A stretch of 39,822 nt of DNA from UHGV virus genome UHGV-0171730; one strand, 5' to 3'. Positions within the stretch are counted from its first letter, which is position 1. Each line of letters opens with the position of its first letter. Of the stretch, positions 2,524-38,056 are shown one piece after another. Origin of the DNA: a virus. The position numbers were made by a program, and so were the translations under genes. The notes under the pieces were generated by a model that ran no database searches, had not been told where the DNA came from, and saw only the letters and a list, made by a program, of their open reading frames with translations.

Positions 2524-2595
2524 GGTGTGCTCCTTATTTATACATAACGAAAAACGCCTCGAGTGAAGCGTTATTGGTATGCGGTAACGCCGCGC

Positions 2596-2964: not shown

Positions 2965-2982
2965 CTATTCATATCCTCATAG

Positions 2983-3010: not shown

Positions 3011-3146
3011 AAAGAAGATTTCCAATAATCAGAACAAGTCGGCTCCTGTTTAGTTACGAGCGACATTGCTCCGTGTATTCACTCGTTGGAATGAATACAC
3101 AGTGCAGTGTTTATTCTGTTATTTATGCCAAAAATAAAGGCCACTA

Positions 3147-3347: not shown

Positions 3348-3417
3348 ACGGATAGTCCTGGTATTGTTCCATCACATCTTGAGGATGCTCTTCGAACTCT
3401 TCAAATTCTTCTTCCAT
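3331..3417 (-). CDS. small acidic ORF (28 aa), orf28-like
   Basis: Hand translation MEEEFEEFEEHPQDVMEQYQDYPYDYDY; overlaps ral start by 17 nt; low complexity. Confidence 0.25.
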   Translation of the reverse strand: MEEEFEEFEEHPQDVMEQYQDYPYDYDY

Positions 3418-3560
3418 ATATCACCTTAAATAGTGGATTGCGGTAGTAAAGATTGTGCCTGTCTTTTAACCACATCAGGCTCGGTGGTTCTCGTGTACCC
3501 CTACAACGAGAAATCGGATAAACTCTATTCACCCCTACAGAGAGCAAAAGAGAAACGCCG

Positions 3561-4142: not shown

Positions 4143-4158
4143 TTAGCAAATGAATTTA

Positions 4159-4431
4159 TCATCTCGCCGTCAGTTGTTTTGATTTCCGGTAGCCTGCCGC
4201 GTAAAGAGCTACGTTCGGAAGACAAGTTGAACCTTCATATTTTCTGGTCAACGTTGTCAGAGTTATCACTTCTGCTCTCATTGCTGGTTTGAGCTTGCAT
4301 TGCAAGACCACTCGTGAAGGGGTTGGCCTGTGTAGCTTGTCGGAGCTGATCGCCTCCTGACTTTGCAGATTTGCGCGACGAGCTCTACGGCGAGAAGCTG
4401 CGGTGCCTTTAAATTCTGTTTTTCTGGACAT
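4159..4431 (-). CDS. N: N-type transcription antiterminator (90 aa)
   Basis: Arg-rich motif TAASRRRARRANLQ near N-terminus; C-terminus LPNVALYAAGYRKSKQLTAR resembles P22 gp24; ATG 4431 preceded by GGGAGG at 5 nt; ORF-track start 4503 rejected. Confidence 0.8.
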   Translation of the reverse strand: MSRKTEFKGTAASRRRARRANLQSQEAISSDKLHRPTPSRVVLQCKLKPAMRAEVITLTTLTRKYEGSTCLPNVALYAAGYRKSKQLTAR

Positions 4432-4529
4432 GGATTCCTCCCGAATAAACTTTGGCGATGCAATCTCGAAGCTCCTCCTGAGACGGTTGCTTCGGCATTG
4501 CATCCCACAGCTTATGTGGTTGGGTGATC

Positions 4530-4574
4530 TGGCTTTTCAGCCACGTAGTCGAGAGTCGACGTTGTTTAAAGAGC
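4530..4574 (-). promoter_or_regulatory. nutL (boxA-like GCTCTTTAAACAACG plus hairpins)
   Basis: Minus-strand GCTCTTTAAACAACG (4560-4574), hairpin GTCGA-CTC-TCGAC (4548-4560), hairpin UGGCU-GAAA-AGCCA (4530-4543); same arrangement at nutR. Confidence 0.5.
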
Positions 4575-4599
4575 CTGCCAGTCTGTTCCATTTGGCTTC

Positions 4600-4700
4600 C
4601 AGCGTCCTGCTGACGGTTAAATAGTACGATATGTACTTTACAAGATCAATACAATTTGTTGTAAGTTGGCGTGGTTTTTTATAACGCTTTGTATTTAATA
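4600..4700 (-). promoter_or_regulatory. pL/oL region with operator-like palindrome
   Basis: AGTACGATATGTACT at 4623-4637 resembles AGTACATATTGTATT at oR (6941-6955); candidate TTGATC-17-TACTAT promoter on minus strand. Confidence 0.4.
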
Positions 4701-4835
4701 GTGTTGTTTTTTAGCGTGGATGTATTGCCTCGGCGATGTAAGGAGAGATCAGAATTGCGTGGTTTAGTGGGTTGCATCTATTTATTTTTCAATAAATATA
4801 ATTGGTTATGTGTTTTTAGGTGGGCGAACGTGAGG

Positions 4836-4862
4836 CAAAGAAAACCCGGCGCTGAGGCCGGG
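4836..4862 (-). terminator. rho-independent terminator ending the cI operon (timm-like)
   Basis: Hairpin CCCGGC-GCTGAG-GCCGGG at 4845-4862 followed on the minus strand by UUUUCUUUG, just after the stop at 4868. Confidence 0.5.
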
Positions 4863-4867
4863 TTGTA

Positions 4868-5620
4868 TTATGCTGCAAGTCTCTTAACCCAAGTCTCTCT
4901 TTTGGAGAATGGTAGAACTTGGCTTGATTCATGGAAGAGTAAGGAGAGTTGTTGCATTTGATCACCAATTGCTTCGCTGTCTATAACAACAAATCTGTTG
5001 TTATACTCCTCACTTGAAGCTTTAAGATCAATTAGTTTCCCAAGCAATGAGTAAGCACTATTCCAGCTTCCTCCGTGTTTCACGCTTGATGTAAAAACGT
5101 ATTTAGGTATGTCGGTTTTTATTGTTACAGGGACGGTAATTTGATGTCCACTCAAGCCATATACGTTTTCACGAAGAGAAAGTGCGTCTCTAAGCTCTGT
5201 GTGATATAGATAATCAATAACCATACTTTCAAACTTTTCAGCTTGAACTGGCTGATACCAGTCTAACGACAAAGTTGATGCGAGTATACCAGCTCTAATT
5301 ATGTTCGATGTAATCGCACCGACATCCTTTTCTGTTGCCCAAGCAATGATTTCTCCTCGAGCATTGAGTTCTGCGCCTTCTTTAAGCAGTAATTGTCGTA
5401 TCTCATCAAGTCGTTTTTTGGTAAGCGAGATCCCTCTTGCCTCCATATTCATTAAGGCATCGCATCTGTCACTAACTAAATACCTACCATTGACTTCACG
5501 GATAAAGGCACCGACATGCTCTCCATCATCACAGTAAGTGAATGGACTGATAATTCTCAAGGTCTTGCCTATTGGATGGCATTCGAAACCTAGTTGTGAG
5601 ATCACTGTTGAGCACATCAT
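4868..5620 (-). CDS. hypothetical protein, 250 aa, second gene after cI (rexB slot)
   Basis: ATG start overlaps upstream stop (ATGATG/TGA at 5615-5620); AT-rich; no motif recognised; no obvious TM segments. Confidence 0.6.
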   Translation of the reverse strand: MMCSTVISQLGFECHPIGKTLRIISPFTYCDDGEHVGAFIREVNGRYLVSDRCDALMNMEARGISLTKKRLDEIRQLLLKEGAELNARGEIIAWATEKDVGAITSNIIRAGILASTLSLDWYQPVQAEKFESMVIDYLYHTELRDALSLRENVYGLSGHQITVPVTIKTDIPKYVFTSSVKHGGSWNSAYSLLGKLIDLKASSEEYNNRFVVIDSEAIGDQMQQLSLLFHESSQVLPFSKRETWVKRLAA

Positions 5621-6174
5621 ATTCCAAACCCCATTTGCCCCGACTCATCTTCAAGCGGTAAAGGTATTCTCCCAGAGTAAGTTATGTTCAGATGTTTACA
5701 GAAGTAATTCCAATACCCTACCAGGTCATCTGGGTTTATGTCATCTTCGATTGGAAACGCTATTCTATCACTATAGTATCCAGCTTCTTCATAGTATACA
5801 TGGTAGTGAGCACCGTAAATGATATCTTGGTACTTCGGATGATCGACCTTGTAACTATTCGTGTGTTTGTCAAAGTGATAGGTATCTACCGCGAAAACCC
5901 TCTTGTTATGATAGAAAGCAATAATATTTATTTTAGGGTAAGAAATCGGGTCATCAGGTTCTGAATCCTGATCTGGTTTCCATTTCAGTTCAAACTTTAG
6001 CCCTTGTATAGGTATACAATCCTCATCCAAGGGGATGATATGGGCTTGTAGCCACATATCAGAGCGACTTGGTTTCTGTTTCCATTTAACGCCAGAAAAG
6101 TTAACTATTTTTTTACAATAAAGTACTTTATCAACTTCTACTTGGCTTGGCTGATAATCATCTATTTTTGCCAA
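5617..6174 (-). CDS. hypothetical protein, 185 aa, first gene after cI (rexA slot); apparent TTG start
   Basis: ORF begins at TTG (6172-6174) immediately after an in-frame TAA; next in-frame ATG is codon 40; Tyr/His-rich segment YHFDKHTNSYKVDHPKYQDIIYGAHYHVYYEE; AT-rich. Confidence 0.5.
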   Translation of the reverse strand: MAKIDDYQPSQVEVDKVLYCKKIVNFSGVKWKQKPSRSDMWLQAHIIPLDEDCIPIQGLKFELKWKPDQDSEPDDPISYPKINIIAFYHNKRVFAVDTYHFDKHTNSYKVDHPKYQDIIYGAHYHVYYEEAGYYSDRIAFPIEDDINPDDLVGYWNYFCKHLNITYSGRIPLPLEDESGQMGFGI

Positions 6175-6213
6175 TGTTTACCGCCCTGTAAATTGTAGAT
6201 AAAAGTGGTTTCA

Positions 6214-6867
6214 TCACCCAAACGTCTCTTCAGGCCATTGGCTGGCGATAACTTTCCCCACAACGGAACAACTCTCATTGCATGGGATCATTGGGTATTG
6301 TGGGTTTAGTGGCTGTAGAAACACCTGACCGCTATCCCTGATCAGTTTCTTGAAGGTAAATTCATCACCACCAAGTCTGGCTATGCAGAAATCGCCGGGC
6401 TCAACAGCTTGCTCAGGGTCAACCAGAATTAACATCCCGTCAGGAAAGCTGGGTTTGGAACCTGTTGGTGCGGTCATTGAGTTACCTTCAACCTCAAGCC
6501 AGAATGCAGAGTCACTGGCTTTTTTGGTTGTGCTTACCAATCTCTCCGCATCGCCTTTGGTAAAGGTTCTGAGTTCTGGAGAGAACATCCCAGCCTGAAC
6601 ATGAGAAAAAACAGGGTACTCATATTGTTTTTTAACTGGGGCCGATGAGTATTCGCCAACAGGTGAAAATGTCCCGTCGTGGTTGAATGATATGTTATCA
6701 ATACCAAGGTATTTAAACACCACACCAATATCACTAAGAGATGGATGACGAGATCCGCGCAACCAGTGTCCAATCCCACCCTGCGTCATACCTAGCTCTT
6801 CGGCTAACTTCTCTTGAGTTATGCCGAGCTCTTTCATTCTGGATCTAGCCAGTTCATACCATTTCAT
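6214..6867 (-). CDS. cI: CI repressor (HTH DNA-binding domain plus LexA/S24-like autocleavage domain)
   Basis: [23 protein letters not shown]; C-terminal half from [12 protein letters not shown] to [10 protein letters not shown] matches lambda cI as remembered; start 6867 chosen for AAGGA spacing (alternative 6873; ORF-track 6915 rejected). Confidence 0.85.
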
Positions 6868-6984
6868 TTTCATGTCCTTATTATTACGCTCTGTACTGGA
6901 ACCATCCATGCACAATGTGTATTTTTACTTGTATTCGCAAAGTACATATTGTATTTTTTTATTCGTGTTTACTATGGAGGGCAT
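6868..6984. promoter_or_regulatory. oR / pRM / pR divergent control region
   Basis: Intergenic between divergent cI and cro; operator-like AGTACATATTGTATT at 6941-6955; AT-rich -10-like elements; GGAGG RBS at 6976-6980. Confidence 0.5.
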
Positions 6985-7200
6985 ATGAGCAACCTACGAA
7001 AATATCGAGAGTCACTGAATATCTCTCAAACAACACTTGCTAAGGCAGTTGGATGCACACAGGGAGCTATCGGACATTGGGAATCTGGTCGTCGCTTCCC
7101 AGACCTTAAAACATGCCGTGCTCTTGTTGCGTGCCTAAACAAGTTAGGCGCAAAAGTCAGTCTTGATGACGTGTTCCCGCCGGAACACAAAGCCGCTTAA
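6985..7200 (+). CDS. cro: Cro-like HTH repressor (71 aa)
   Basis: HTH ISQTTLAKAVGCTQGAIGHWESG; divergent from cI; ATG 6985 after GGAGG. Confidence 0.75.
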   Translation: MSNLRKYRESLNISQTTLAKAVGCTQGAIGHWESGRRFPDLKTCRALVACLNKLGAKVSLDDVFPPEHKAA

Positions 7201-7210
7201 TAAGCGGATC

Positions 7211-7256
7211 CGCTCTTTGTAACAACGGACATTCGTCCTACGTCGCTGAAAAGCGA
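7211..7256 (+). promoter_or_regulatory. nutR (boxA CGCTCTTTGTAACAACG plus hairpins)
   Basis: CGCTCTTT at 7211-7218, AACAACG, hairpin GGAC-ATTC-GTCC, boxB-like UCGCU-GAAA-AGCGA at 7243-7256; mirrors nutL. Confidence 0.5.
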
Positions 7257-7341
7257 GTTCCAAGATATCTGACCAACTAAGGCCATATGCGTTTCCACGC
7301 ATACCTTTCAACTAACTATTCACTATTGGAAATCTTAAGAA

Positions 7342-7638
7342 ATGGAAAGAACAAGTTACAGCAAACTATCACAGCGTGACGTTGATCGCGCAGAAACAGA
7401 TTTACTTATCAATCTGTCAGCTATTACCCAGCGCGGTCTGGCAAAGATGATTGGCTGTCATGAATCGAAGATAAGCAGAACGGACTGGAGATTTATTGCT
7501 TCGGTCTTGTGTGCTTTCGGAATGGCATCAGACATCAGTCCGATTAGCAGGGCTTTTAAGTATGCGCTTGATGGACTCACCAATAAAAAACGCCCGGCGG
7601 CAACCGAGCGTTCTGAACAAATCCAGATGGAATTCTGA
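7342..7638 (+). CDS. cII: CII transcriptional activator
   Basis: C-terminus LTNKKRPAATERSEQIQMEF matches lambda CII as remembered; N-terminal DNA-binding part differs. Confidence 0.85.
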   Translation: MERTSYSKLSQRDVDRAETDLLINLSAITQRGLAKMIGCHESKISRTDWRFIASVLCAFGMASDISPISRAFKYALDGLTNKKRPAATERSEQIQMEF

Positions 7639-7661
7639 GGTCATTACTGGATCAATCCACA
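7585..7661 (-). ncRNA. oop: OOP-like antisense RNA (approximate extent)
   Basis: Minus-strand terminator (stem CGCUCGG/CCGGGCG plus U6) at 7585-7612 in the cII 3' end, as for lambda tO; 5' end inferred from the lambda 77-nt OOP length. Confidence 0.4.
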
Positions 7662-7670
7662 GGAGTCATT

Positions 7671-8570
7671 ATGACAAATACAGCAAAAATACTCAACTTC
7701 TGCAGAGGTAACTTTGCCAAACAGGAGCGTAATGTGGCAGATCTCGATGATGGTTACGCCAGACTATCAAATATGCTGCTTGAGGCTTATTCAGGCGCAG
7801 ATCTGACCAAGCGACAGTTTAAAGTGCTGCTTGCCATTCTGCGTAAAACCTATGGATGGAATAAACCAATGGACAGAATCACCGATTCTCAACTTAGCGA
7901 GATTACAAAGTTACCCGTCAAACGGTGCAATGAAGCCAAGTTAGAACTCGTCAGAATGAATATTATCAAGCAGCAAGGCGGCATGTTTGGACCAAATAAA
8001 AACATCTCAGAATGGTGTATCCCTCAAAACGAGGGAAAATCCCCTAAAACGAGGGATAAAACATCCCTCAAATTGGGGGATTGCTATCCCTCAAAACAGG
8101 GGGACACAAAAGACACTATTACAAAAGAAAAAAGAAAAGATTATTCGTCAGAGAATTCTGGCGAATCCTCTGACCAGCCAGAAAACGACCTTTCTGTGGT
8201 GAAACCGGATGCTGCAATTCAGAGCGGCAGCAAGTGGGGGACAGCAGAAGACCTGACCGCCGCAGAATGGATGTTTGACATGGTGAAGACCATCGCGCCA
8301 TCAGCCAGAAAACCGAATTTTGCAGGGTGGGCTAACGATATCCGCCTGATGCGTGAACGTGACGGACGTAACCATCGCGACATGTGTGTACTGTTCCGCT
8401 GGGCATGCCAGGACAACTTCTGGTCCGGTAACGTGCTGAGCCCGGCCAAACTCCGCGACAAGTGGACCCAGCTCGAAATCAACCGTAACAAGCAACAGGC
8501 AGGTGTGACAGCCTGCAAACCAAAACTCGACCTGACAAACACTGACTGGATTTACGGGGTGGATTTATGA
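7671..8570 (+). CDS. O: replication initiator O
   Basis: Near-identical to lambda O as remembered (MTNTAKILNF...WIYGVDL); contains ori iterons. Confidence 0.95.
   Translation: MTNTAKILNFCRGNFAKQERNVADLDDGYARLSNMLLEAYSGADLTKRQFKVLLAILRKTYGWNKPMDRITDSQLSEITKLPVKRCNEAKLELVRMNIIKQQGGMFGPNKNISEWCIPQNEGKSPKTRDKTSLKLGDCYPSKQGDTKDTITKEKRKDYSSENSGESSDQPENDLSVVKPDAAIQSGSKWGTAEDLTAAEWMFDMVKTIAPSARKPNFAGWANDIRLMRERDGRNHRDMCVLFRWACQDNFWSGNVLSPAKLRDKWTQLEINRNKQQAGVTACKPKLDLTNTDWIYGVDL
8019..8150 (+). repeat. ori-lambda: four ~18-bp iterons plus AT-rich region
   Basis: ATCCCTCAAAACGAGGGA (8019-8036), ATCCCCTAAAACGAGGGA (8039-8056), ATCCCTCAAATTGGGGGA (8063-8080), ATCCCTCAAAACAGGGGGA (8086-8104), then A-rich tract. 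Confidence 0.85.
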
Positions 8571-22438: not shown

Positions 22439-22627
22439 ATGTCTCAAATCATGCTTTATAAGCCGGGATCGATGATCACCTGCGGCCCCCACTCGCTGGA
22501 TTACATCATCGTTGATGACGAAGAAGTTAAATCTCACCTGAAAAAAGGCTGGGTAAAAACTCCTGAAGAAACCGCAACGAAGCAAAAAGTGGCTAAGGCG
22601 GAAGAAGATGGCGAAAACGAAGGGTGA
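22439..22627 (+). CDS. small hypothetical protein (62 aa)
   Basis: ATG 22439 after GGAGATCGAA; ORF-track start 22271 rejected because it runs through the terminator. Confidence 0.4.
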   Translation: MSQIMLYKPGSMITCGPHSLDYIIVDDEEVKSHLKKGWVKTPEETATKQKVAKAEEDGENEG

Positions 22628-23069
22628 TCTCGTTCTAAAGGCTTTACGAAAAGCCGGGCTGTATTCCAATGCCACGTTGACAGATGCTGACCCTCAGGCA
22701 ATTGAAGATGCCATTAATGACCTCGAAGACATGATGGCAGCATGGCAGGCTAAAGGTATCGAGCTTGGATATCAGTTTGCTGATACAGAAAACGGCATCA
22801 TGCCGTTACCTGACGATGATTCAGGTATCCCTGCATGGGCAAATGATGGCGTCGCTTTGAAACTCGCTGTGCAAGTGTGCATGGATAACGTCATTCAGCC
22901 GTCAGACGCTCTCCTTACCGCTGCTGACAGTGCATATCAAACAATCTGTATCGCTTTAACCAAAATACCACCACTTGAGCGGCGAAATGATATGCCTCGC
23001 GGGGCGGGGTTAAAAAACGCGTTTACGTGGAATCGGTTTTACATCGAGAAAGATGATCCGAGTACGTGA
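22608..23069 (+). CDS. P22 gp4-like head-tail adaptor
   Basis: Size and synteny. Confidence 0.55.
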   Translation: MAKTKGDLVLKALRKAGLYSNATLTDADPQAIEDAINDLEDMMAAWQAKGIELGYQFADTENGIMPLPDDDSGIPAWANDGVALKLAVQVCMDNVIQPSDALLTAADSAYQTICIALTKIPPLERRNDMPRGAGLKNAFTWNRFYIEKDDPST

Positions 23070-23078
23070 GGTGAATAA

Positions 23079-24497
23079 ATGCCGATTCAGCAACTTCCGC
23101 TTATGAAAGGTGTCGGCAAAGACTTTCGAAACGCCGACTATATCGACTATCTGCCAGTGAATATGCTGGCTACGCCCAAAGAAATACTCAACAGCAGCGG
23201 ATATCTTCGCTCATTCCCGGGCATTGCCAAACGTTCTGATGTGAACGGCGTATCGCGGGGCGTCGAGTACAACATGGCGCAGAATGCTGTTTATCGCGTA
23301 TGTGGTGGTAAGCTGTACAAAGGAGAAAGTGAAGTCGGTGACGTCGCCGGAAGTGGTCGCGTATCAATGGCGCATGGTCGAACATCACAGGCGGTAGGCG
23401 TTAATGGTCAACTGGTCGAATACCGCTATGATGGCACGGTTAAAACCGTCTCAAACTGGCCTACAGACAGCGGATTCACGCAGTATGAGTTAGGCTCAGT
23501 CCGCGACATTACGCGCTTGCGTGGGCGTTATGCGTGGTCAAAAGACGGCACTGATTCATGGTTTATCACTGACCCTGAAGACGAATCGCATCCTGACCGT
23601 TACAGCGCACAATATCGCGCAGAATCTCAGCCGGACGGCATCATCGGCATCGGAACATGGCGAGACTTCATCGTCTGCTTTGGCTCATCGACGATTGAAT
23701 ATTTCTCCCTGACGGGCGCAACCACTGTTGGTGCCGCTTTGTATGTCGCCCAGCCATCGTTGATGGTGCAAAAAGGAATCGCCGGAACCTACTGCAAAAC
23801 GCCGTTTGCTGATTCGTATGCGTTCATCAGCAATCCGGCAACAGGTGCGCCGTCTGTGTACATCATCGGCTCCGGTCAGGTGTCACCAATCGCCAGCGCG
23901 AGCATTGAGAAAATCCTCCGCTCCTACACTGCTGATGAACTGGCTGATGGCGTGATGGAGTCTCTGCGCTTTGATGCTCATGAGTTGCTGATTATCCACC
24001 TTCCGCGCCATGTTCTCGTGTACGACGCATCTTCAAGCGCCAATGGTCCGCAATGGTGTGTGCTGAAAACAGGCTTGTATGACGATGTGTACCGCGCTAT
24101 CGACTTCATTTACGAAGGCAATCAGATAACGTGCGGAGATAAGCTGGAATCGGTTATCGGCAAATTGCAGTTCGATATCAGCAGCCAGTATGGGCTACAG
24201 CAAGAACATATTTTATTTTCACCATTAATAAAGGCAGATAATGTCATTATTAATGACCTTGAATTAGAAACATCAGGCGGCGTGTGTGATAGAATAGATA
24301 AAATATTTATATCAGCAACAACAGATGGAATAAATTACGGCAGGGAACAAATGGTCGTATTGCAATCTCCATTTGTATATGACAATCGAGTCTTATGGCG
24401 CAGGATTGGAAGAGTTAGACGTCTCATCGGTTTTAAATTCAGAGTTATTGCAAAAGGCCCGGTTACATTATCCGGACTGTCTATTCGTACAACATAA
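23079..24497 (+). CDS. P22 gp10-like tail hub protein (472 aa)
   Basis: Size identical to P22 gp10 as remembered; synteny; AT-rich 3' end. Confidence 0.6.
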   Translation: MPIQQLPLMKGVGKDFRNADYIDYLPVNMLATPKEILNSSGYLRSFPGIAKRSDVNGVSRGVEYNMAQNAVYRVCGGKLYKGESEVGDVAGSGRVSMAHGRTSQAVGVNGQLVEYRYDGTVKTVSNWPTDSGFTQYELGSVRDITRLRGRYAWSKDGTDSWFITDPEDESHPDRYSAQYRAESQPDGIIGIGTWRDFIVCFGSSTIEYFSLTGATTVGAALYVAQPSLMVQKGIAGTYCKTPFADSYAFISNPATGAPSVYIIGSGQVSPIASASIEKILRSYTADELADGVMESLRFDAHELLIIHLPRHVLVYDASSSANGPQWCVLKTGLYDDVYRAIDFIYEGNQITCGDKLESVIGKLQFDISSQYGLQQEHILFSPLIKADNVIINDLELETSGGVCDRIDKIFISATTDGINYGREQMVVLQSPFVYDNRVLWRRIGRVRRLIGFKFRVIAKGPVTLSGLSIRTT

Positions 24498-24518
24498 ATC
24501 GAAACTTAAGGAGTAGAT

Positions 24519-25064
24519 ATGTTAAGTGAAGATATTAGAGATGTAGTTGGTTATGAGGGGCTTTATGCGGTAACTCGTGATGGTAGAGTTTACTCTCACT
24601 CAAGGATAATAAATACATGCCATGGGGCTACTCGATTAATGAAGGGTAGATGGCTGAAGCCAGCAAAGGATGGGGGCGGATATCTATTTGTTGGTCTCTG
24701 TAAGGATGGAGAGGTTAAACCAAAAAAAATACATCGAATTGTTGCTGAGGCATTTATTGAAAACAAAGAATCTAAACCATTCATCAACCATATAGATAAT
24801 AATAATCAAAATAATAATGTAGAAAATCTTGAATGGTGTACGCAACATGAAAACATGCAGCATTGCTCTAGAAGCGGTAGGGTGAAAATACCTCATTATG
24901 TGGGTTCTGAACATCCATCGTCCAAATTAAATGAAGATATAGTTCTGGTCATAAAAAATGATTTGATTACGCCAATTAGCGAGTTAGCTGCAAGATATAA
25001 TGTGACTGTTCAGGCCATACACGCCATTAAAAAAGGGAAGACATGGAGGCATGTGAATGGCTGA
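24519..25064 (+). CDS. HNH homing endonuclease
   Basis: N-terminal [16 protein letters not shown] motif; HNH core HIDNN...NLEW...HEN; AAGGAG RBS; AT-rich. Confidence 0.8.
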
Positions 25065-25758
25065 TCCCAATCTCAACGTGCCAGTAACTATCCAGGCCAC
25101 CCGGCTAGACACATCAATCCTTCCACGCAATATATTCAGCCAGTCTTACCTGCTGTATGTCATTAATCAGGGGGCTGATGTCGGCGCAATTGCCGGGAAG
25201 GCAAATCAGGCTGGTCAGGGCGCTTACGATGCTCAGGTGAAAAACGATGAACAGGACGTCGAACTGGCAGATCACGATTCAAGAATCACCGCAAACACAA
25301 AAGCGATAAATCTCCTTGAGGTCAGGTTAACAACCGCCGAAGTGAAGATAGTCGTACTGCGTAGCGATGTTGATTACTTGCTGGATGAGGTTATCGATAT
25401 TCAGGCGCATCTGGTCACTGTTGACAAAAGACTGGATGGCGTAGAAAGCGATGTATCTGACATTAAGAGTGATTACGTATCGAAAACCGTAACCAAATTG
25501 CAGTCTCTTGCGTCACCGCTGGATGTAAAAACATCATATTCAGTTGATGGAATTCAGGTTGTTGGAGCAAGAAATACCGGATGGACTGCAGCCACAGGTA
25601 CACCTCTTCTTGGCTCATTCAACGCTAACCAGTCATACACGGTCGGCACTACGTACACACAATCCGAAGTCGCAGCTCTCGCTACAGGTTTGGAGCAGGC
25701 GCGGCAGCGTATTCTGGCGCTTGAAACAGCACTTAGATTACATGGGCTGATTGACTGA
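25057..25758 (+). CDS. tail needle (P22 gp26-like, 233 aa)
   Basis: N-terminus [25 protein letters not shown] and C-terminus RLHGLID match P22 gp26 as remembered; coiled-coil body. Confidence 0.8.
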
Positions 25759-26213
25759 TGATTACATTCAAACCAACACGAAACATCGACCTGATAGAAG
25801 CCGTGGGAAATCACCCTGACATTATTGCCGGGAGCAACAACGGTGATGGATACGACTACAAGCCTGAATGCCGTTACTTTGAGGTTAACGTGCACGGACA
25901 GTTCGGCGGCATTGTTTACTATCAGGAGATTCAGCCGCTGACATTCGATTGCCACGCCATGTACCTGCCAGAGATTCGCGGCTTCAGCAAGGAAATCGGG
26001 CTGGCGTTCTGGCGATACATTCTGACTAACACCACCGTTCAGTGCGTCACATCGTTCGCTGCGCGCAAATTCCGCCACGGTCAGATGTACTGCGCAATGA
26101 TTGGCCTTAAGCGTGTAGGAACCATCAAGAAATACTTCAAAGGCGTGGATGACGTGACGTTTTACAGCGCCACACGTGAAGAACTAATCGACTTCCTGAA
26201 TCACGGGAGATAG
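25758..26213 (+). CDS. P22 gp14-like head assembly protein
   Basis: Synteny; ATGA overlap. Confidence 0.45.
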   Translation: MITFKPTRNIDLIEAVGNHPDIIAGSNNGDGYDYKPECRYFEVNVHGQFGGIVYYQEIQPLTFDCHAMYLPEIRGFSKEIGLAFWRYILTNTTVQCVTSFAARKFRHGQMYCAMIGLKRVGTIKKYFKGVDDVTFYSATREELIDFLNHGR

Positions 26214-30490: not shown

Positions 30491-30895
30491 TTAGTCATCC
30501 ATGGATGGATTGAGCTTATCTCGTGTTGATGTGGCAATTTTCCCAACATTTTTCAACCAAGATTTTAAGAAGGATATGTCGTCCTTAATATCATGAATAT
30601 CCTCATTCTTTATACGATCAACCTTATCCTCTAAGCTCTCTATAGAACGCTCAATGCTAGACAGAGAGATTTTTAAGTCCCCTTGCTCACGTTCCAGTGA
30701 GGATTTGAGAGCACAATATTCGTTTTCTAGAATTCCTATTTTTTTTGTTAGAGAGTGCATTCGATACTCATACACCAAACCAGAAACGACTAATGCAGCC
30801 AACAGAAACCATTCAAGCACACCAACCTCCTTAGTTTTGCGCAGGATACCAGATGATAATGTGTAGTTGGAGTAGCGCGGTTGTAATGCAAGCAT
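30491..30895 (-). CDS. hypothetical membrane-anchored coiled-coil protein (134 aa)
   Basis: One hydrophobic segment WFLLAALVVSGLV then heptad-like repeats; AT-rich; weak RBS. Confidence 0.4.
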   Translation of the reverse strand: MLALQPRYSNYTLSSGILRKTKEVGVLEWFLLAALVVSGLVYEYRMHSLTKKIGILENEYCALKSSLEREQGDLKISLSSIERSIESLEDKVDRIKNEDIHDIKDDISFLKSWLKNVGKIATSTRDKLNPSMDD

Positions 30896-30979
30896 TTTGT
30901 TTTGGTTTTATGCTTGCTTGTATGTGTGTACAGTGCATATAATGCAAGCATACATCACAACAAAGGTGCTTGCATTATG
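30885..30979. promoter_or_regulatory. divergent control region with four alternating 11-bp sites and a sigma70-like promoter
   Basis: AATGCAAGCAT at 30885-30895 and 30941-30951; reverse orientation ATGCTTGCTTG at 30910-30920 and TGCTTGCATT at 30967-30976; TTGCTT (30914-30919), 18-bp spacer, TATAAT (30938-30943). Confidence 0.4.
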
Positions 30980-31969
30980 ACTGAAAAGAAAAGTGGCGAA
31001 GGGAAAGCTAAGGGCGGTATCGCTCGCGCAAAGTCGCTGACTAAAGAGCAGCGTTCTGAAATAGCAAAGAAAGCAGCGGCTGCAAGATGGAAGGATAAAC
31101 CATTAATTGCTACGCATAAGGGATCGTTCCAGCATGAATTCGGGATTGATGTTGAGTGCTATGTGTTAAATGATGATAACAAAACTGCCGTTATTAGCCA
31201 GAGAGGCATGGGAGAAGCGATTGGTCTTGGCGAAGGTGGCAGCAGGTTGCCAAAGTTTATTCAGGGGAAAACTATTTCTCAGTATATCGGGCATGAATTA
31301 AGGGCAAAACTTGAAAATCCTCTTATTTTTCAATACAAACAGGCGGGCACGAACACTCCAGCTAATCCTGTAATACATGGCTACGATGTAACAATATTAA
31401 TTGATTTATGTCGAGCAATCTCTAATGCTAAAGCTGAAGGTAAGTTGCTTTCCAGTCAGGAAGGGATTGCTAAGCAAGCCAGAATCATTATTGATGCATC
31501 AGCCAAGGCGGGCATTCAGGGGCTTGTTTATGCTTTGGCAGGGTATGACAGAACAAAAGAAGAGGTAATTCAAGCATATAAGCGATATGTTGCTGAAGAG
31601 GCTCGTGAGTATGAAAGAGAGTTCACCCCTGAACTTTATGAGCATTGGTATCGTCTGTATGGTATAGACAAACCAGTTAGAGGGCGACCATGGGCGTTTA
31701 AATATCTTACGATAGATCACATTTATTACCCATTAGCCAGAAGTGAAGGAAAGGTATTTAATTTAGCAAAAACGTCAAAAGAAGAAAAAGGCAGCAAGAA
31801 CGATAAAATACACCAGTTTTTATCAGAGGTTGGAGTTAAGGCTCTTAGAACCCAAATAGGTAAGGTTACTGGTATTGCAATGGTTTCTGATACTCGAGAA
31901 GAGTATGAGAAATACATAGATGAAAAGGTTATTGGACAAAGAACCATAGACTTAAAAGATAAAGAATAA
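30977..31969 (+). CDS. hypothetical protein (330 aa) with basic N-terminal region
   Basis: ATG 30977 downstream of consensus-like promoter; strong terminator after stop; N-terminal KAKGGIARAKSLTKEQRSEIAKKAAAARW; ORF-track start 30902 rejected. Confidence 0.5.
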   Translation: MTEKKSGEGKAKGGIARAKSLTKEQRSEIAKKAAAARWKDKPLIATHKGSFQHEFGIDVECYVLNDDNKTAVISQRGMGEAIGLGEGGSRLPKFIQGKTISQYIGHELRAKLENPLIFQYKQAGTNTPANPVIHGYDVTILIDLCRAISNAKAEGKLLSSQEGIAKQARIIIDASAKAGIQGLVYALAGYDRTKEEVIQAYKRYVAEEAREYEREFTPELYEHWYRLYGIDKPVRGRPWAFKYLTIDHIYYPLARSEGKVFNLAKTSKEEKGSKNDKIHQFLSEVGVKALRTQIGKVTGIAMVSDTREEYEKYIDEKVIGQRTIDLKDKE

Positions 31970-31998
31970 GAAAAACCCACCGTCAGGTGGGTTTTTTA
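31970..31998. terminator. bidirectional rho-independent terminator
   Basis: Hairpin ACCCACC-GTCA-GGTGGGT at 31975-31992 flanked by A5 upstream and T6 downstream. Confidence 0.6.
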
Positions 31999-32022
31999 TA
32001 AGGAGTAATCATGATTTACCCA

Positions 32023-32559
32023 TCAAACAACCCACCAGTTTGCCTGATTGGATACCAGCCTTGCAGTTTTTATGGAATTAATTATGCCATGCTCAAGAGC
32101 CTTGTTAGCATCCAAAATGGTCGAGTCTGCTATCAGGGATGCCCACCTAATATGGGTTCCGATGTCGATATTGAACGTCTCAACGAAGCGATCAAGATCG
32201 TTATCGAGGCATTTCCCGTACTCTCTCAATCTGGCATGGTCGGCGGCTGGGGAGGCAAAGCACCATAATAGAGGATGTAACAGGAATCTTGATAATGGGT
32301 TTGCGAAACGTTCTGAGCCAGCCAGGAAAACGATATTAGCTATGGATTCAACATTGCTTATGTTGTGAGTTCTAACGGTAACAGGGAGTGACTTAAGAAA
32401 GTTATACGCAGTAAAGCCAGCGGCTGTTTCCCCTCCCTGACTTGATATATGGATATTTAATTCAGTTGCGCCTTGAGATAATGCGGTGAGACAGTGGTTC
32501 TGAAGTTGCCCAACAGTGGCAGTGTTAACGGGGCATAAGAAATGAATTGTGTGCAGCAT
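32023..32559 (-). CDS. ClpP-like serine protease-fold protein (178 aa)
   Basis: ISSQGGETAAGFTAYNFL resembles ClpP INSPGGVITAGMSIYD; AGSERFANPLSRFLLHP resembles [20 protein letters not shown]; start overlaps mnt stop. Confidence 0.55.
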   Translation of the reverse strand: MLHTIHFLCPVNTATVGQLQNHCLTALSQGATELNIHISSQGGETAAGFTAYNFLKSLPVTVRTHNISNVESIANIVFLAGSERFANPLSRFLLHPLLWCFASPAADHARLREYGKCLDNDLDRFVETFNIDIGTHIRWASLIADSTILDANKALEHGIINSIKTARLVSNQANWWVV

Positions 32560-32813
32560 TATTTATCATCCTTGCCATAAATCTTTTTAAGTGTCTCAAA
32601 CACAACGGCCTTGAACTGCTCTGCTTGCTGATCAGCCAAGCGTTCAGCTTCGTCTCGATAGCCTGCAATCGGTGATGGCTTTGAGAGAGCATCCTGAACG
32701 ATTTGTAATAACTCAGAGTTCATTGACCTTCCGTTAGCCTCTGCTCTTAATTTCAATTTTTCTCTTACTTCCAAAGGCATACGGAAGTTAAAGTGCGGAT
32801 CGTTTCTAGCCAT
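32559..32813 (-). CDS. mnt: Mnt repressor (ribbon-helix-helix)
   Basis: MARNDPHFNFRMPLEVREKLKLRAEANGRSMNSELLQIVQDAL matches P22 Mnt as remembered. Confidence 0.85.
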   Translation of the reverse strand: MARNDPHFNFRMPLEVREKLKLRAEANGRSMNSELLQIVQDALSKPSPIAGYRDEAERLADQQAEQFKAVVFETLKKIYGKDDK

Positions 32814-32835
32814 GCCATCACCCCAAGTTAGTGTA

Positions 32836-32887
32836 TTGACATGATAGAAGCACTCTACTATATTCTCAATAGGTCCACGGTGGACCT
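32836..32887. promoter_or_regulatory. immI control region: Pant promoter, Arc operator, Mnt operator
   Basis: TTGACA (32836-32841), 17 bp, TATATT (32859-32864); ATGATAGAAGCACTCTACTAT at 32841-32861; perfect palindrome AGGTCCACGGTGGACCT at 32871-32887. Confidence 0.7.
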
Positions 32888-32903
32888 ATATTGTGAGGTA
32901 AAT

Positions 32904-33062
32904 ATGAAAGGAATGAGCAAAATGCCGCAGTTCAATTTGCGGTGGCCTAAAGAAGTATTGGATTTGGTGCGTAAGGTGGCGGAAGAGAACGGGCGATCTG
33001 TTAACTCTGAGATTTACAAGCGAGTGTTGGACAGCCTGAAGAGAGAGGGGATAACGGTATGA
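32904..33062 (+). CDS. arc: Arc repressor (ribbon-helix-helix)
   Basis: MKGMSKMPQFNLRWPKEVLDLVRKVAEENGRSVNSEIYKRV matches P22 Arc as remembered; ORF-track start 32841 rejected. Confidence 0.9.
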   Translation: MKGMSKMPQFNLRWPKEVLDLVRKVAEENGRSVNSEIYKRVLDSLKREGITV

Positions 33063-33280
33063 GGTTTATTGAGGTTGATGAGATTGGCTATGAGAATGCA
33101 CTTGGTAGAGGTAAATCTTTAGTTAACATTGATGGCATTGAATCGATAAGGAGTGGTGAATTTACGGAGATCAGAATGATGTCAGGCGGAATCATTCCTT
33201 GCCGTGATTCAGTAGAGTCAATCAAATCAAAAATGAGTGGTCAGTGGCTTTATAGCTACAGTGACTTACAAAAACAGTGA
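33059..33280 (+). CDS. hypothetical protein (73 aa) between arc and ant
   Basis: ATGA overlap with arc stop; no motif recognised. Confidence 0.45.
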   Translation: MRFIEVDEIGYENALGRGKSLVNIDGIESIRSGEFTEIRMMSGGIIPCRDSVESIKSKMSGQWLYSYSDLQKQ

Positions 33281-33343
33281 AGCCCCAACTGCGGGAACAG
33301 TCAGGGCTTCGGTATCGTAAAACCACGCATAGGAATTAACGAC

Positions 33344-34267
33344 ATGACGAGTGTAGCAATTGCAGAACATACAATCAACGTTCCATTCCACGGAACAAAT
33401 CTCTTTTTGGTCAGCATTAACAATGAACCTTACGTTCCTATGAAACCCGTTGTAGAAGGCATGGGTATGGTTTGGGCTGCTCAATTTGTTAAATTAAAAC
33501 AGAGATTTGTCAAAGGTATTTCGGAAATCGAAATACCTTCTGCTGGCGGTAAACAGTTAATGATATGCCTTGCCTTTCGTAAGTTTGCGGCTTGGCTTTC
33601 AAGCATTCAGCCAAACAAAGTCCGCCCTGAAATCCGCGACAAGGTAATCCAGTATCAGGAAGAGTGTGACGATGTGCTCTACGAGTACTGGACTAAAGGC
33701 CATGTGGTTAATCCACGCAAAGCTAAAAAGGCGTTGCCGGGGAAAATCACTACTGAACAGCAGGAAGCCATTAAACAACTCGTCATGAGTCGCGGTCAGT
33801 CTCTGCCAAAAGAAAAACAGGCTAAGGCGATGATCACCATGTGGTCGTCACTGAAATCCCATTTTGGATGTTCGTACAAAGAAATCAGTGAGGAGCAGTT
33901 TACAGAAGCACTGTCACTTGCAGCTCGAGTTCCACTTGAAGGTGAGTTCATTGGCAAACAAGAAGAGTTACCAGCGCCAAAACTGGATATTAACTTCCCG
34001 ATTTCATGGTTTGCTGAAAATGCACCTTACGCCATTATCAGGCAGCAATGCGGTGATACTGTTGCTCTTGACCGCAGCGCACTCGTTGAATGCAGTCCGG
34101 CGTATAAACTAATCAATATTCTGACAAAAGCGGGGTATGACGTTTCAGCAGTAAGAGCTGAACTAAAAGCACTTCGCCATTTAATGGCTGAGCAAAGCTG
34201 GGCACTTAAAGAGATAGCTTCATTCGCAGCGATACGTGATAGAGCGTGCCACTCAATTAAACTTTAA
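33344..34267 (+). CDS. ant: antirepressor Ant (307 aa)
   Basis: Position after arc; size close to P22 Ant (300 aa). Confidence 0.7.
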   Translation: MTSVAIAEHTINVPFHGTNLFLVSINNEPYVPMKPVVEGMGMVWAAQFVKLKQRFVKGISEIEIPSAGGKQLMICLAFRKFAAWLSSIQPNKVRPEIRDKVIQYQEECDDVLYEYWTKGHVVNPRKAKKALPGKITTEQQEAIKQLVMSRGQSLPKEKQAKAMITMWSSLKSHFGCSYKEISEEQFTEALSLAARVPLEGEFIGKQEELPAPKLDINFPISWFAENAPYAIIRQQCGDTVALDRSALVECSPAYKLINILTKAGYDVSAVRAELKALRHLMAEQSWALKEIASFAAIRDRACHSIKL

Positions 34268-34305
34268 CTACCTGCACGAAAAGTGTAGGTCAATAACCAA
34301 CGCAA

Positions 34306-34332
34306 CGACCCAGCTTCGGCTGGGTTTTTTTA
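34306..34332 (+). terminator. rho-independent terminator after ant
   Basis: Hairpin ACCCAGC-TTCG-GCTGGGT at 34308-34325 followed by T7. Confidence 0.6.
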
Positions 34333-34389
34333 TGCCCAAAATTCACCGTAGCCATGCTGCGGCGATTCCTTGTGTCTGGAGCAAATTAA

Positions 34390-37335
34390 ATGAGAGACAT
34401 TACAGCCAATGTGATCGTATCGATGCCTTCGCAACTCTTCACTATGGCGCGTTCTTTTAAAGCCGTAGCTAATGGCAAAATTTATATCGGTAAAATTGAC
34501 ACAGATCCTGTAAATCCAGAAAACCAGATTCAGGTCTATGTGGAGAATGAAGACGGTTCTCACGTTCCTGTTTCGCAACCAATAATCATTAACGCTGCTG
34601 GATATCCTGTATATAACGGACAGATTGCCAAATTCGTTACCGTGCAAGGCCATTCTATGGCTGTTTATGATGCGTATGGTGCGCAGCAGTTCTATTTTCC
34701 TAATGTGCTGAAGTATGACCCTGATCAGTTACGGCAGCAATTAGAAGACCCAGATGGAGCGAATAAATACCCAAAACTTCAGATAGCAAGATGGAGAGAC
34801 AGTTATGATGTAAGAGGTTGGGGGGCTATTGGTGATGGTGTTCATGATGATACATCAGCTCTATCAGAATTACTTTCTGTTGCAACAGGTGGTGAAAAGA
34901 TAGATGGGCGAGGGCTTACTTTTAAAGTATCAACTCTTCCAGATGTCAGTCGATTTAAAAATGCTCGTTTTTTATTTGAGAGAATACCGGGTCAGCCTCT
35001 TTTTTATGCTTCTGAAGATTTTATCCAGGGAGAGTTATTTAAAATTACAGATACACCGTGGTACAACGCCTGGACGCAGGATAAAACGTTTGTATATGAC
35101 AATGTCATCTATGCGCCTTTTATGGCTGGAGACCGCCATGGTGTAAATAACCTCCATGTTGCATGGGTTCGCTCAGGAGATGACGGGAAGACCTGGACAA
35201 CGCCGGAATGGCTTACAGATTTACATAAAAACTATCCCACAGTTAACTATCACTGCATGAGTATGGGGGTTGTCAGAAATCGCCTTTTTGCTGTAATTGA
35301 GACGCGGACCGTGAGAGGAAATAAACTGCAGGTTGCAGAGTTGTGGGATCGCCCAATGAGTCGCAGCCTTCGCGTTTATGGTGGTATAACGAAAGCAGCA
35401 AATCAGCAAGTCGCTTATATTCGCATTACTGATCACGGATTATTTGCTGGTGATTTTGTCAACTTCTCAAACTCTGGTGTTACAGATGTTACCGGGAATA
35501 TGACGGTGACTACTGTTATTGATAAAAATACCTTTACAGTTACGACGCAAAATACCCAGGATGTGGATCAGAATAACGAGGGTAGATACTGGAGTTTTGG
35601 TACATCATTTCACTCGTCACCATGGAGAAAAACCAGTCTTGGAACTATTCCTTCTTTTGTTGACGGAAGCACTCCTGTTACTGAGATTCACAGTTTTGCG
35701 ACGATTAGCGATAACAGTTTTGCTGTTGGCTACCATAATGGTGATATTGGTCCACGCGAGCTTGGGATACTCTATTTCTCTGATGCTTTCGGTTCTCCTG
35801 GTAGCTTTGTTCGCAGACGCATACCTGCAGAATATGAGGCGAATGCATCTGAGCCATGTGTAAAATATTATGATGGCATTCTGTATCTGACGACCAGGGG
35901 GACATTAAGTACTCAACCCGGTAGTTCATTGCACAGAAGCTCTGATTTAGGTACATCATGGAATTCTCTTCGCTTCCCAAATAATGTTCATCACTCAAAC
36001 CTTCCTTTTGCCAAAGTTGGCGATGAGCTGATTATTTTTGGCAGTGAGCGCACATTTGGTGAGTGGGAAGGAGGAGAACCTGATAACCGTTATGCAGGAA
36101 ATTATCCAAGAACATTTATGACCAGAGTTAACGTCAATGAGTGGAGTCTGGATAATGTAGAGTGGGTTAATGTTACTGATCAGATTTATCAGGGCGGAAT
36201 AGTTAACTCTGCGGTTGGTGTTGGTTCAGTTTGTATCAAAGACAACTGGCTGTACTACATTTTCGGTGGGGAAGACTTTCTAAACCCATGGAGCATAGGG
36301 GATAACAACAGAAAATATCCTTATGTTCACGATGGTCACCCGGCTGATTTGTATTGTTTCAGGGTGAAAATTAAACAGGAAGAATTTGTTTCAAGGGATT
36401 TTGTCTACGGAGCCACTCCTAACAGAACGCTTCCTACTTTTATGTCGACGTCAGGCGTGAGGACGGTTCCTGTACCCGTTGATTTCACAGATGATGTTGC
36501 CGTCCAGTCACTGACTGTCCATGCAGGTACATCAGGACAAGTTCGCGCGGAAGTCAAACTTGAGGGTAATTACGCCATTATTGCGAAGAAAGTACCGTCT
36601 GATGATGTTACCGCTCAGAGATTAATCGTTAGCGGCGGTGAAACAACGTCTTCAGCAGATGGTGCAATGATAACGTTGCATGGTTCCAGAAGCAGTACTC
36701 CACGTCGCGCGGTATATAACGCACTCGAACATCTTTTTGAGAACGGAGATGTTAAACCTTATCTTGATAATGTAAATGCTCTTGGTGGTCCGGGAAACAG
36801 GTTCTCGACAGTTTATCTTGGCTCCAATCCTGTGGTTACCAGTGACGGAACATTAAAGACAGAGCCGGTCTCTCCTGACGAAACATTGCTGGATGCCTGG
36901 GGTGACGTCAGGTATATCGCTTATAAATGGCTGAACGCTGTCGCTATAAAGGGGGAAGAAGGGGCGAGGATACATCATGGTGTAATCGCGCAGCAACTTC
37001 GTGATGTTCTTATTTCTCACGGACTCATGGAAGAAGAAAGCACAACATGCCGCTATGCGTTTCTTTGCTATGACGATTATCCCGCAGTATATGATGACGT
37101 CATTACTGGCCAAAGGGAAATGCCGCTGACTGATAATGACGGGAGCATCATTGTTGATGAGGATGATAATCCAGTGATGGTAATGGAAGACATCATTGAG
37201 CGCGTTGAAATAACGCCAGCAGGATCTAGATGGGGGGTCAGGCCTGATCTCTTATTCTATATCGAGGCGGCATGGCAGCGCAGAGAAATGGATAAGATAA
37301 AAGCTAGGTTAGACTTAATAGAAGGGAAGCACTAA
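34390..37335 (+). CDS. tailspike: P22-like head-binding N-domain, sialidase-like (Asp-box) body, C-terminal intramolecular-chaperone-like domain
   Basis: N-terminal ~115 aa match P22 gp9 head-binding domain as remembered; Asp-boxes SGDDGKTW (35173-35196) and SSDLGTSW (35938-35961); C-terminal SDGTLK and HHGVIAQQ motifs. Confidence 0.8.
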
Positions 37336-37761
37336 ATGTTTCGTTGGCGTCAAAAATATGAACTGCTCACATAAAGAAGTAAGTACATTGGCAAAAAACA
37401 TTGACGTCAACGAAATTAAATATAAAACATCATGCAGACATATTACCAATATTAATATAAGGTAATAAAAATATAATTTACAAAAAAGGCCCGTTGGAAG
37501 CGACGGGCATTAACCGCGGTAATGGATAAATTATTAATGTTTTTAGATTGTGAACGATATCATATTGTGCGGAAGTAGTGAAGTAACCATGTAAAATGAT
37601 TGTTTCATAGCCTATGAGACACACAAGGCTTTGTGCTCTTCGATAGTTGTTAAGGCGGATCACTCTACCTTCTCATCAATCCAGTCCGCCCCCACTGCAT
37701 CATTTCTCTGCGCTTATCGAGATACTGAGCATGGTTGTAAATTCAACTAACCCAGTTCGTT

Positions 37762-37805
37762 GACAAAAAATTAGCGCAAGAGGACAAAAAATCACCTTGC
37801 GCTAA
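37762..37805 (-). terminator. sib/tI-like terminator in the att P arm
   Basis: Perfect 10-bp inverted repeat TTAGCGCAAG (37771-37780) / CTTGCGCTAA (37796-37805) followed on the minus strand by a T-run (plus A6 at 37765-37770). Confidence 0.5.
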
Positions 37806-37966
37806 TGCTCTGCCTCAGGTCACTAATACTATCTAAGTAGTTGATTCATAGTGACTGGATATGTTGTGTTTTGTAGTATTATGCAGTCTATTATTTAGAC
37901 TAAATCCTTCATAACATATTGATATTTACAGTGTTTTCTGTTTCTCGTTCAGCTTTTTTATACTAA
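37800..37966 (+). other. attR: lambda-type P arm plus 15-bp core GCTTTTTTATACTAA (37952-37966)
   Basis: P arm matches lambda attP left arm as remembered; core followed by CTTGAGCGAAACGGGAAGG, the E. coli attB right arm. Confidence 0.85.
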
Positions 37967-38056
37967 CTTGAGCGAAACGGGAAGGTAAAAAGACAAAAAG
38001 TTGTTTTTAATACCTTTAAGTGATACCAGATGGCATTGCGCCATCTGGCAGAGTGA

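Follow-up and report, generated by a model that had tools for sequence, protein, structure and literature searches.

Why should an endonuclease gene lie between two virion genes of a P22-like phage, and why should the AT-rich composition that accompanies it begin inside the gene before it? The late operon of the viral genome UHGV-0171730, whose whole analysed stretch of 39,822 nucleotides (nt) we call the window, raises this question and is of the type found in P22-like (Lederbergvirus) phages or prophages. On its + strand, a homologue of gene 10 (23079-24497, 472 amino acids (aa); Pfam Phage_stabilise PF11134, E=2.4e-280), encoding the tail hub or 'packaged DNA stabilization protein', is followed by an HNH open reading frame (ORF; 24519-25064, 181 aa; Pfam NUMOD4 and HNH_3; PHROG 59 'HNH endonuclease', E=2.9e-52) and then by the needle gene, a gp26 homologue (25057-25758; PHROG 1219 'tail needle protein', E=2.6e-111). 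Comparison with related phages and prophages indicates that positions 24198-25064 evidently form a mobile cassette of ~870 bp, shared among P22-like phages, in which the HNH gene travels with a recoded end of gene 10; that the nuclease actively drives the spread of this cassette seems to us probable, at roughly 70%.

The cassette begins at a sharp boundary within gene 10. The native backbone part of the gene (codons 1-373, 23079-24197, + strand) runs up to a left junction at 24198-24209 (+ strand; CAGCAAGAACAT, encoding QQEH) that is kept in cassette-bearing and cassette-free alleles alike, and beyond it lie the recoded, AT-rich 3' end of a hybrid gene 10 (codons 378-472 plus stop, 24210-24497, + strand) and a 21-nt spacer (24498-24518, + strand; ATCGAAACTTAAGGAGTAGAT), which carries the HNH Shine-Dalgarno sequence AAGGAG 5 nt before the ATG. 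At the other end, the HNH stop and the needle ATG overlap by 8 nt within ATGGCTGA. An earlier reading of this DNA from its letters alone (the sequence-only reading) had described a free-standing HNH gene with AAGGAG, set between gp10-like and gp26-like genes and overlapping the needle gene by 8 nt, and all of these features are present. G+C content (GC) is ~0.52-0.56 up to ~24100 and then 0.32-0.42 across 24200-25000, with the break at 24198-24210 inside gene 10 (GC 0.52 to 0.36), 309-321 nt 5' of the HNH ATG; the same reading had correctly seen the drop inside gene 10 but placed it at 24180, ~340 nt upstream, and was off by ~20-30 nt. Codons 1-373 have a GC of 0.522 and a third-position GC (GC3) of 0.560, compared with 0.361 and 0.253 for codons 378-472 and 0.378 and 0.30 for the HNH gene. 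Among all 3,896 segments of equal size in the 39.8 kb, none has a lower GC than the 867-nt module (z = -6.5 relative to the remaining late operon), and this composition break is far beyond chance.

The recoded segment differs from the rest of gene 10 in descent as well as in composition. Against phage HK620, the head of the gene (codons 1-370) is 94% identical at the nucleotide level and 99% at the protein level, whereas the tail (codons 371-472) is only 54% and 63% identical; over codons 1-373, HK620, HZ41 and 683R2 all match the head at 94-95% of nucleotides and 99% of amino acids. By the Nei-Gojobori method, synonymous divergence (dS) from HK620 is 0.29 for the head and saturated for the tail, where nonsynonymous divergence (dN) is 0.35. 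Gene-10 tails fall into two clades, a normal one with 93-99% aa identity within it and a cassette one with 84-91%, and identity between the two is 61-64%. The last 95 codons of gene 10 (378-472) thus evidently have an ancestry other than that of the head, which bears out the proposal of the sequence-only reading that the last ~100 codons (95-99 by the position of the break) came from a different source. The recoded tail is in frame with a single stop, the HNH ORF lies 21 nt away, and the segment probably encodes a working C-terminus of gp10, because its dN is much below its dS. No remnant of the native tail lies between the HNH and needle genes in the window. A tblastn search of phages for relatives of the tail returned only HZ41 (91%) and nothing else above 68%, and a search of 5.8 billion proteins returned only short fragments at 98% (Salmonella) and 91% (E. 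coli), followed by matches of ≤70%; the best tail from outside the cassette is 68-70% identical to the recoded one.

Both the insert and its absence can be observed among close relatives. Genes 10 and 26 of HK620 overlap by 1 nt and have no insert between them, and the flanking genes of the window are complete and collinear with this pair. By megablast against phages, CUS-3, HK620, IME10, Huey and most other relatives span 2,120 bp, compared with 2,680 bp in the window. The locus was matched in ~910 of 5,426 complete Escherichia coli genomes, most of which have the empty junction and a normal-GC gene-10 tail, and together with HK620 and CUS-3 these insert-free genomes speak against the finding that would have refuted the sequence-only reading, namely that all related phages carry the gene. 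About 94% of related prophages are without it, and the AT-rich tail was found, always at the same position, in 56 of the ~910 E. coli genomes that have the locus.

Wherever this tail occurs, an HNH gene follows it. We searched the complete E. coli genomes by blastn with a query that ran from the tail across the spacer to nucleotide 150 of the HNH gene, calling a tail at ≥80% identity. In 53 of the 56 tail carriers the match continues into an adjacent intact HNH 5' end; in the other three the HNH gene is interrupted by an insertion sequence (IS), IS3 or IS1, beyond which the remainder of the gene follows. These three, whose matches end 12-50 nt into the HNH gene, were considered as HNH-free tails and rejected as such. 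The tail is also present in 29 IMG/VR contigs, and in each of these the spacer follows and the HNH gene starts 21 nt past the gene-10 stop; the gene is whole and retains its catalytic motif in 27 of them, runs off the contig end in one and is disrupted by IS1 in another (L025), as judged from reading the IS1 end sequence. The IS3-family and IS1 insertions lie within the first ~12-50 nt of the HNH gene (L016 2886-4114, L017 2850-3547 and L025 ~2845), and they recur at nearly the same AT-rich spot in the prophages of ETEC6333/6334 and M160133 and in one IMG/VR contig.

More distant versions of the cassette retain this architecture. The HNH homologues that we traced (86, 80, 76, 56, 53, 48 and 43% identity) occupy, without exception, the slot between gene 10 and the needle gene, overlap the needle start by 8 nt in most cases and by 14 nt in L009, and adjoin an AT-rich gene-10 tail with a GC of 0.35-0.42 versus 0.51-0.57 in the head; the neighbouring needle genes are of differing types and encode 233-323 aa. 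The spacer is always 21 nt long and consists, in every carrier examined, of ATCGAAAC, a variable tetranucleotide (TTAA in the window) and GGAGTAGAT. Hosts of the cassette are Escherichia, Salmonella and Citrobacter. The AT-rich tail is therefore a fixed and old component of the cassette, with a common left edge in every carrier. The sequence-only reading had proposed a homing-endonuclease invasion with co-conversion of flanking sequence; that interpretation gains support, with a role for the nuclease that we infer, although the tail is not the one-off tract of variable length that co-conversion in a single event had implied.

The edges of the cassette suggest how it is exchanged. Its left edge falls at the conserved CAGCARGAACAT (QQEH) and its right edge at the conserved needle start ATGGCTGA. 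In carriers with unrelated heads (46-86% identical), identity rises at 24198 to 80-96% and is held through the spacer, and the recoded tail is 80-93% identical at the nucleotide level to the tails of these same carriers; the QQEH codons are a likely crossover zone. Six carriers have the window's own allele, four of them complete E. coli genomes and two IMG/VR contigs, and each differs from the window at 0-3 positions over 24198-25097, while the flanks diverge by 2-30%. Upstream, gene 10 shows 2-11 differences per 100 nt from these carriers, with the last left-hand single-nucleotide polymorphisms (SNPs) at 24176-24203; just downstream, the needle gene shows at least 28 differences per 100 nt from five of the six. 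The identical block reaches ~40-65 nt into the needle gene (from 25057 to 25097-25121), which is why ~12 of the window's first 50 needle nt differ from HZ41, 683R2 and HK620. Among the four E. coli carriers the HNH protein has a single accession, whereas the gp10 and needle accessions differ. Because the near-identical block at 24198-25097 sits in diverged flanks, it indicates that the cassette has recently spread horizontally, and the block itself looks like the product of recent co-conversion. Comparison with phage HZ41 complements this picture: dS is 0.22 in the head and 0.56 in the tail, and the HNH proteins are only 56% identical with saturated dS, so that a near-identical backbone carrying a different version of the cassette points to separate histories of backbone and cassette.

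The HNH gene itself retains the features of an HNH nuclease gene. Its product comprises an N-terminal NUMOD4 beta-sheet DNA-binding domain (24537-24698, + strand, aa 7-60; PF07463, E=2.6e-8; model strands E6-E70), an HNH_3 catalytic core (24726-24860, + strand, aa 70-114; PF13392, E=9.4e-9, scoring 35.2 bits against a curated cutoff of 24.8) and a predicted C-terminal helical, helix-turn-helix-like DNA-binding domain (24933-25058, + strand, aa ~139-180). A phmmer search of PDB sequences returned I-HmuI (1U3E) as the sole match (E=5.1e-12). The key codons of the core on the + strand are N90-H91 (24786-24791), N103 (24825-24827) and N112 (24852-24854); in the alignment to I-HmuI, H91 corresponds to H75, N103 to N87 and N112 to N96, and N90 occupies the position of D74. 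Across 54 aligned homologues N90, H91 and N103 are invariant and N112 is kept in at least 90%, and the HNH motif is accordingly intact; its loss, the other finding that would have refuted the sequence-only reading, is not seen. The asparagine at the D74-equivalent position is probably functional, because it is invariant in the whole clade.

Structure prediction agrees with these assignments. An AlphaFold2 model with a predicted local distance difference test score (pLDDT) of 90.8 has an N-terminal beta-sheet domain, a beta-beta-alpha core (E88-91, E104-107 and H109-119, pLDDT ~95) and a C-terminal bundle of four short helices (H139-147, H153-159, H164-172 and H177-180), a region in which sister alleles give weak HTH_23 and HTH_38 matches. 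By Foldseek, 1U3E is the only significant PDB match, extending over the full length (E=1.8e-8, probability 1.00, 182 aligned columns, TM 0.56-0.58), with I-PpoI as runner-up at E=0.047. The ratio of nonsynonymous to synonymous polymorphism (pN/pS) of the HNH gene is 0.13-0.19 against alleles that are 76-86% identical, and the protein thus appears to be under purifying selection. RefSeq annotates it as 'HNH endonuclease' or 'NUMOD4 domain-containing protein', and a scan of species-representative genome contigs with the HNH protein found no carrier there, returning one irrelevant locus of 31% identity in a soil metagenome-assembled genome. Taken together, the alignments and the model depict what is evidently an intact, selectively constrained and free-standing gene for an I-HmuI-like HNH endonuclease.

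The HNH alleles in this 3' slot fall into at least five classes, with N-terminal segments in common and different cores, and their 3' ends are 77-88% conserved across the classes. The first ~47 residues are common to allele classes whose cores and C-terminal domains are ~40-50% identical (L001, L012, L014, L015, L018 and L023), a pattern that suggests recombination within the nuclease genes by domain shuffling.

These results lead us to propose the following course of transfer. When two phages infect one cell, or when one enters a cell with a resident prophage, the nuclease would nick or cut a cassette-free allele at or near the junction of gene 10 and the needle gene, and the break would be repaired by recombination with the cassette-bearing genome as template. 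The whole recoded tail and the HNH gene would be copied as one block, with the left exchange point in the conserved QQEH codons and the right one among the first ~15-20 needle codons; as the 285-nt tail (~54% identity) is too divergent for an internal crossover, tail and nuclease would be inherited as a unit. Between carrier and cassette-free alleles the tail differs by 46% at the nucleotide level, and the insert separates the two halves of the gene 10-needle junction; the recoded tail presumably deletes the recognition sequence of the enzyme, which would leave the carrier immune to its own nuclease. Spread by this route would be nuclease-driven rather than passive.

The insertion also leaves the late operon intact. 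No + strand promoter or terminator is predicted in 23900-25300, and the HNH gene is therefore probably transcribed as part of the late transcript and translated from its own strong ribosome-binding site (RBS). The sequence GGAGG at 25046-25050, the Shine-Dalgarno sequence of the needle gene, lies inside the last HNH codons, 6 nt before the needle ATG, and in this way the cassette provides the translation signals of the essential gene downstream: the HNH 3' end supplies both the needle RBS and, through the 8-nt overlap, its start.

Several observations weigh against an active role of the nuclease. The first metal-ligand position, D74 in I-HmuI, is an asparagine throughout the clade. The recognition target site could not be identified computationally. 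Many carriers are prophages, some with an IS-disrupted HNH gene, and the element is not selected everywhere. Neither the phage tblastn nor the protein search found a donor lineage with a gene 10 that is AT-rich throughout, so that the tail may stem either from an ancient transfer out of an unsampled low-GC phage or from divergence in place. Finally, the left edge of the identical island lies within ~20-60 nt of the edge of heterology, with no variable trailing into the upstream homology, and ordinary recombination at a conserved junction could produce the same island pattern.

This last point leads to the alternative that the tail and the HNH gene form a passive mosaic module that originated in a low-GC relative and has since moved about by ordinary recombination, homologous or illegitimate, with the nuclease as a passenger. 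P22-like genomes are highly mosaic, the exchange points of the cassette lie right at short conserved sequences, and other mosaic boundaries are found nearby (the junction of genes 4 and 10 in two carriers and a 28-SNP patch of the needle gene at 25122-25197), all of which such shuffling would account for. However, tail and HNH gene are linked without exception in 85 independently sampled tail carriers. In nearly all carriers, too, the HNH gene is intact and its catalytic motif invariant, and the protein is under purifying selection, which would be unexpected of an inert passenger. Moreover, at least three different HNH genes have arrived independently at the two ends of gene 10, which argues for targeting related to the nuclease rather than chance. 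We therefore consider passive shuffling unlikely and prefer homing as the explanation for the spread of the cassette.

It is also conceivable, though in our estimation very improbable, that the HNH protein serves the phage in an accessory or domesticated role such as DNA processing, superinfection exclusion of unrelated phages or anti-defence, and that the variant gp10 tail is an adaptation of the tail hub to needle or host and is linked to the HNH gene by a joint function. In some HK97-like phages, an HNH protein of a different subfamily, whose gene adjoins the terminase genes, is a terminase co-factor. Purifying selection on the HNH protein, its presumed expression from the late operon with a strong RBS, and the persistence of the cassette across Escherichia, Salmonella and Citrobacter hosts would all suit such a role. 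Yet ~94% of related prophages manage without the cassette, sequence differences among the HNH alleles of the slot reach 57%, with the domain shuffling typical of selfish nucleases, and the cassette accompanies four or more needle types and gene-10 heads that differ greatly. A tail variant matched to one particular needle type was considered separately and rejected, since the cassette co-occurs with several needle families. Lastly, I-HmuI, the closest solved relative, is encoded in a group I intron, and the idea that the HNH gene of the window likewise lies in an intron that interrupts the tail gene can be dismissed, because the gene-10 stop precedes the HNH ATG by 21 nt, the HNH stop overlaps the needle ATG, both flanking genes are complete, and Rfam gave no match at E≤1 on either strand of 23800-25400; a ribozyme would not fit, and the HNH gene is free-standing.

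Gene 10 attracts HNH genes beyond the cassette described here. The slot is a hotspot: phage vB_EcoP-683R2 (L002 2922-3416) and 13 E. coli genomes hold a different HNH gene at the junction of gene 10 and the needle gene, which encodes 164 aa with HNH_3 and a sub-threshold AP2-like domain and adjoins a gene-10 tail of normal GC. The GenBank label 'endolysin' on this nuclease gene looks like a mis-annotation. A mirror-image cassette is found at the 5' end of gene 10 in E. coli LD39-1 (L018 2392-3200), Salmonella phage UPF_BP1 (L004 1541-2400) and L052 (1206-1931), where a 194-aa NUMOD4-HNH gene is inserted 94 nt into gene 10. Its spacer, RBS and first 47 residues are the same as those of the HZ41-class allele of the 3' slot. 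In all three loci a frameshifted fragment of the native gene-10 start (94 nt) is left upstream, and the first ~120 nt of gene 10 are recoded (46-73% nt identity) before identity returns to 96-100%. Annotators should accordingly not take this 94-nt fragment for random decay. In 16 E. coli genomes the spacer and HNH 5' end are matched more weakly, at 60-80%, and these genomes probably carry the mirror cassette; LD39-1 is among them and is the one that was inspected.

Gene 10 of the E. coli isolate 30602_1#64 (L052 1206-3852) is bracketed by both cassettes, with the 5' HNH gene and recoded start on one side and the recoded tail and a 177-aa 3' HNH gene on the other, forming a miniature homing endonuclease gene (HEG) island. 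We tentatively entertain, as a speculation that may well prove wrong, the idea that gene 10 is contested by two mirror-image families of cassettes that act as portable units of weapon plus immunity, each pairing an HNH gene with a recoded, nuclease-resistant end of gene 10. If so, a carrier, whether phage or prophage, would cut the DNA of co-infecting relatives with ordinary gene-10 ends and convert them, or else exclude them; the divergence of the HNH alleles (43-100% identity, with a common N-terminal 47 aa and different cores) would be the trace of an arms race in which nuclease specificity and target recoding are pitted against each other; and a gene 10 with both cassettes would be a small HEG island able to move as one piece.

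The cassette combines features of several known systems. Its nuclease resembles I-HmuI of Bacillus phage SPO1 (PDB 1U3E) in the three-part layout of NUMOD4, beta-beta-alpha-metal HNH and C-terminal helical domains, in length (181 versus 174 aa) and in the conserved general-base histidine and asparagine metal ligand; it differs in having only ~26% identity, in being free-standing rather than carried in a group I intron, and in the asparagine that replaces D74 in the window's clade. [quoted passage not shown] As in intronless homing by SegB/E/F/G and MobE of T-even phages (PMC2988022, PMC2790892, PMC2330249), a nuclease gene lies between conserved essential genes, is present or absent among close relatives, and is co-inherited with a flank that differs from the sensitive allele, giving localized mosaicism through co-conversion and marker exclusion. 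In contrast to those systems, the host here is a temperate P22-like podovirus or prophage, and the flank is a fixed, recoded 285-nt gene end (54% identity) kept in all carriers rather than a variable tract of a few polymorphisms.

A close parallel for the recoded gene end is offered by mitochondrial mobile ORFs. In Allomyces macrogynus atp6 (Paquin et al. 1994) and in Glomus atp6, atp9, cox2 and nad3 (PMC3630166), an endonuclease ORF is coupled to a foreign, divergent end of an essential gene, joined in frame with the native part to give a hybrid gene, and the nucleotide sequence of the inserted end has diverged far more than its protein sequence (PMC3630166). The native C-terminus is usually kept downstream as a duplicate there, whereas the native tail of the window has been cleanly replaced and a native leftover occurs only with the mirror-image 5' cassette; moreover, the nucleases are of the GIY-YIG and LAGLIDADG types in a different genetic system.

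HEGs are also known near essential genes and at the boundaries of genetic exchange (PMC10448857). The HEG islands of ICP1 and other phages (Barth, Dunham & Seed 2023, PMC10448857) share with the locus described here HNH-3-type HEGs that adjoin structural or essential genes, different HEGs at one locus among isolates, domain shuffling, and an essential gene bracketed by HEGs, as in L052. They differ in that they come from lytic vibriophages and other lineages, with the gene 10 cassette not described there, and in that the exchanged unit of the window is <1 kb and includes a recoded gene end. A full-text literature search found no published description of the cassette, though an earlier mention in comparative work on P22-like virion genes is possible. 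As homing with co-conversion and endonuclease-linked hybrid genes are already known, the cassette adds no new mechanism, and it is probably best seen as a clean but fairly ordinary case of mosaicism driven by a homing endonuclease.

Even so placed, the cassette explains a sharp mosaic boundary inside gp10, an essential and structurally solved protein (PDB 8TVR, 7SG7) of classic model phages, and it offers a tractable natural system. The genetics of P22, HK620 and Sf6 are good, cultured carriers such as phage HZ41 and inducible E. coli prophages exist, and the system is suited to measuring how a free-standing homing endonuclease of temperate phages carries a recoded segment from genome to genome, how self-immunity is encoded and how alleles turn over in one slot. 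Annotators of related genomes should expect hybrid gene-10 alleles, in which the AT-rich tail is not an error of assembly or annotation.

The surroundings of the cassette show further mosaicism. The gene 4 homologue (22608-23069) lies upstream of gene 10, and the gene 14 homologue (25758-26213) downstream of the needle gene. In the two carriers L050 and L020, gene 4 (window 22600-23078) is 31-68% different per 100 nt and gene 10 is ~95% identical, and the junction of the two genes, which is also the site of the 5' HNH cassette, is a sharp mosaic boundary. Within the needle gene, the 76 nt at 25122-25197 differ at 28 positions from the carriers KE40, PEC011 and AF46 and one carrier contig of IMG/VR, all of which are otherwise near-identical to the window there; the second IMG/VR contig also differs over this patch and remains divergent downstream, NRZ105822 has no differences in it, and HK620 diverges from the window close by (29/50 identity at 25160-25210). 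This patch is evidently a small internal mosaic segment just 3' of the identical block. At the scale of the whole window, the regions at 1-8400 and 30600-38000 have a GC of 0.39-0.46, below that of the virion-assembly block (~0.50-0.54), and AT skew is negative over the first 7 kb, which suggests genes on the opposite strand.

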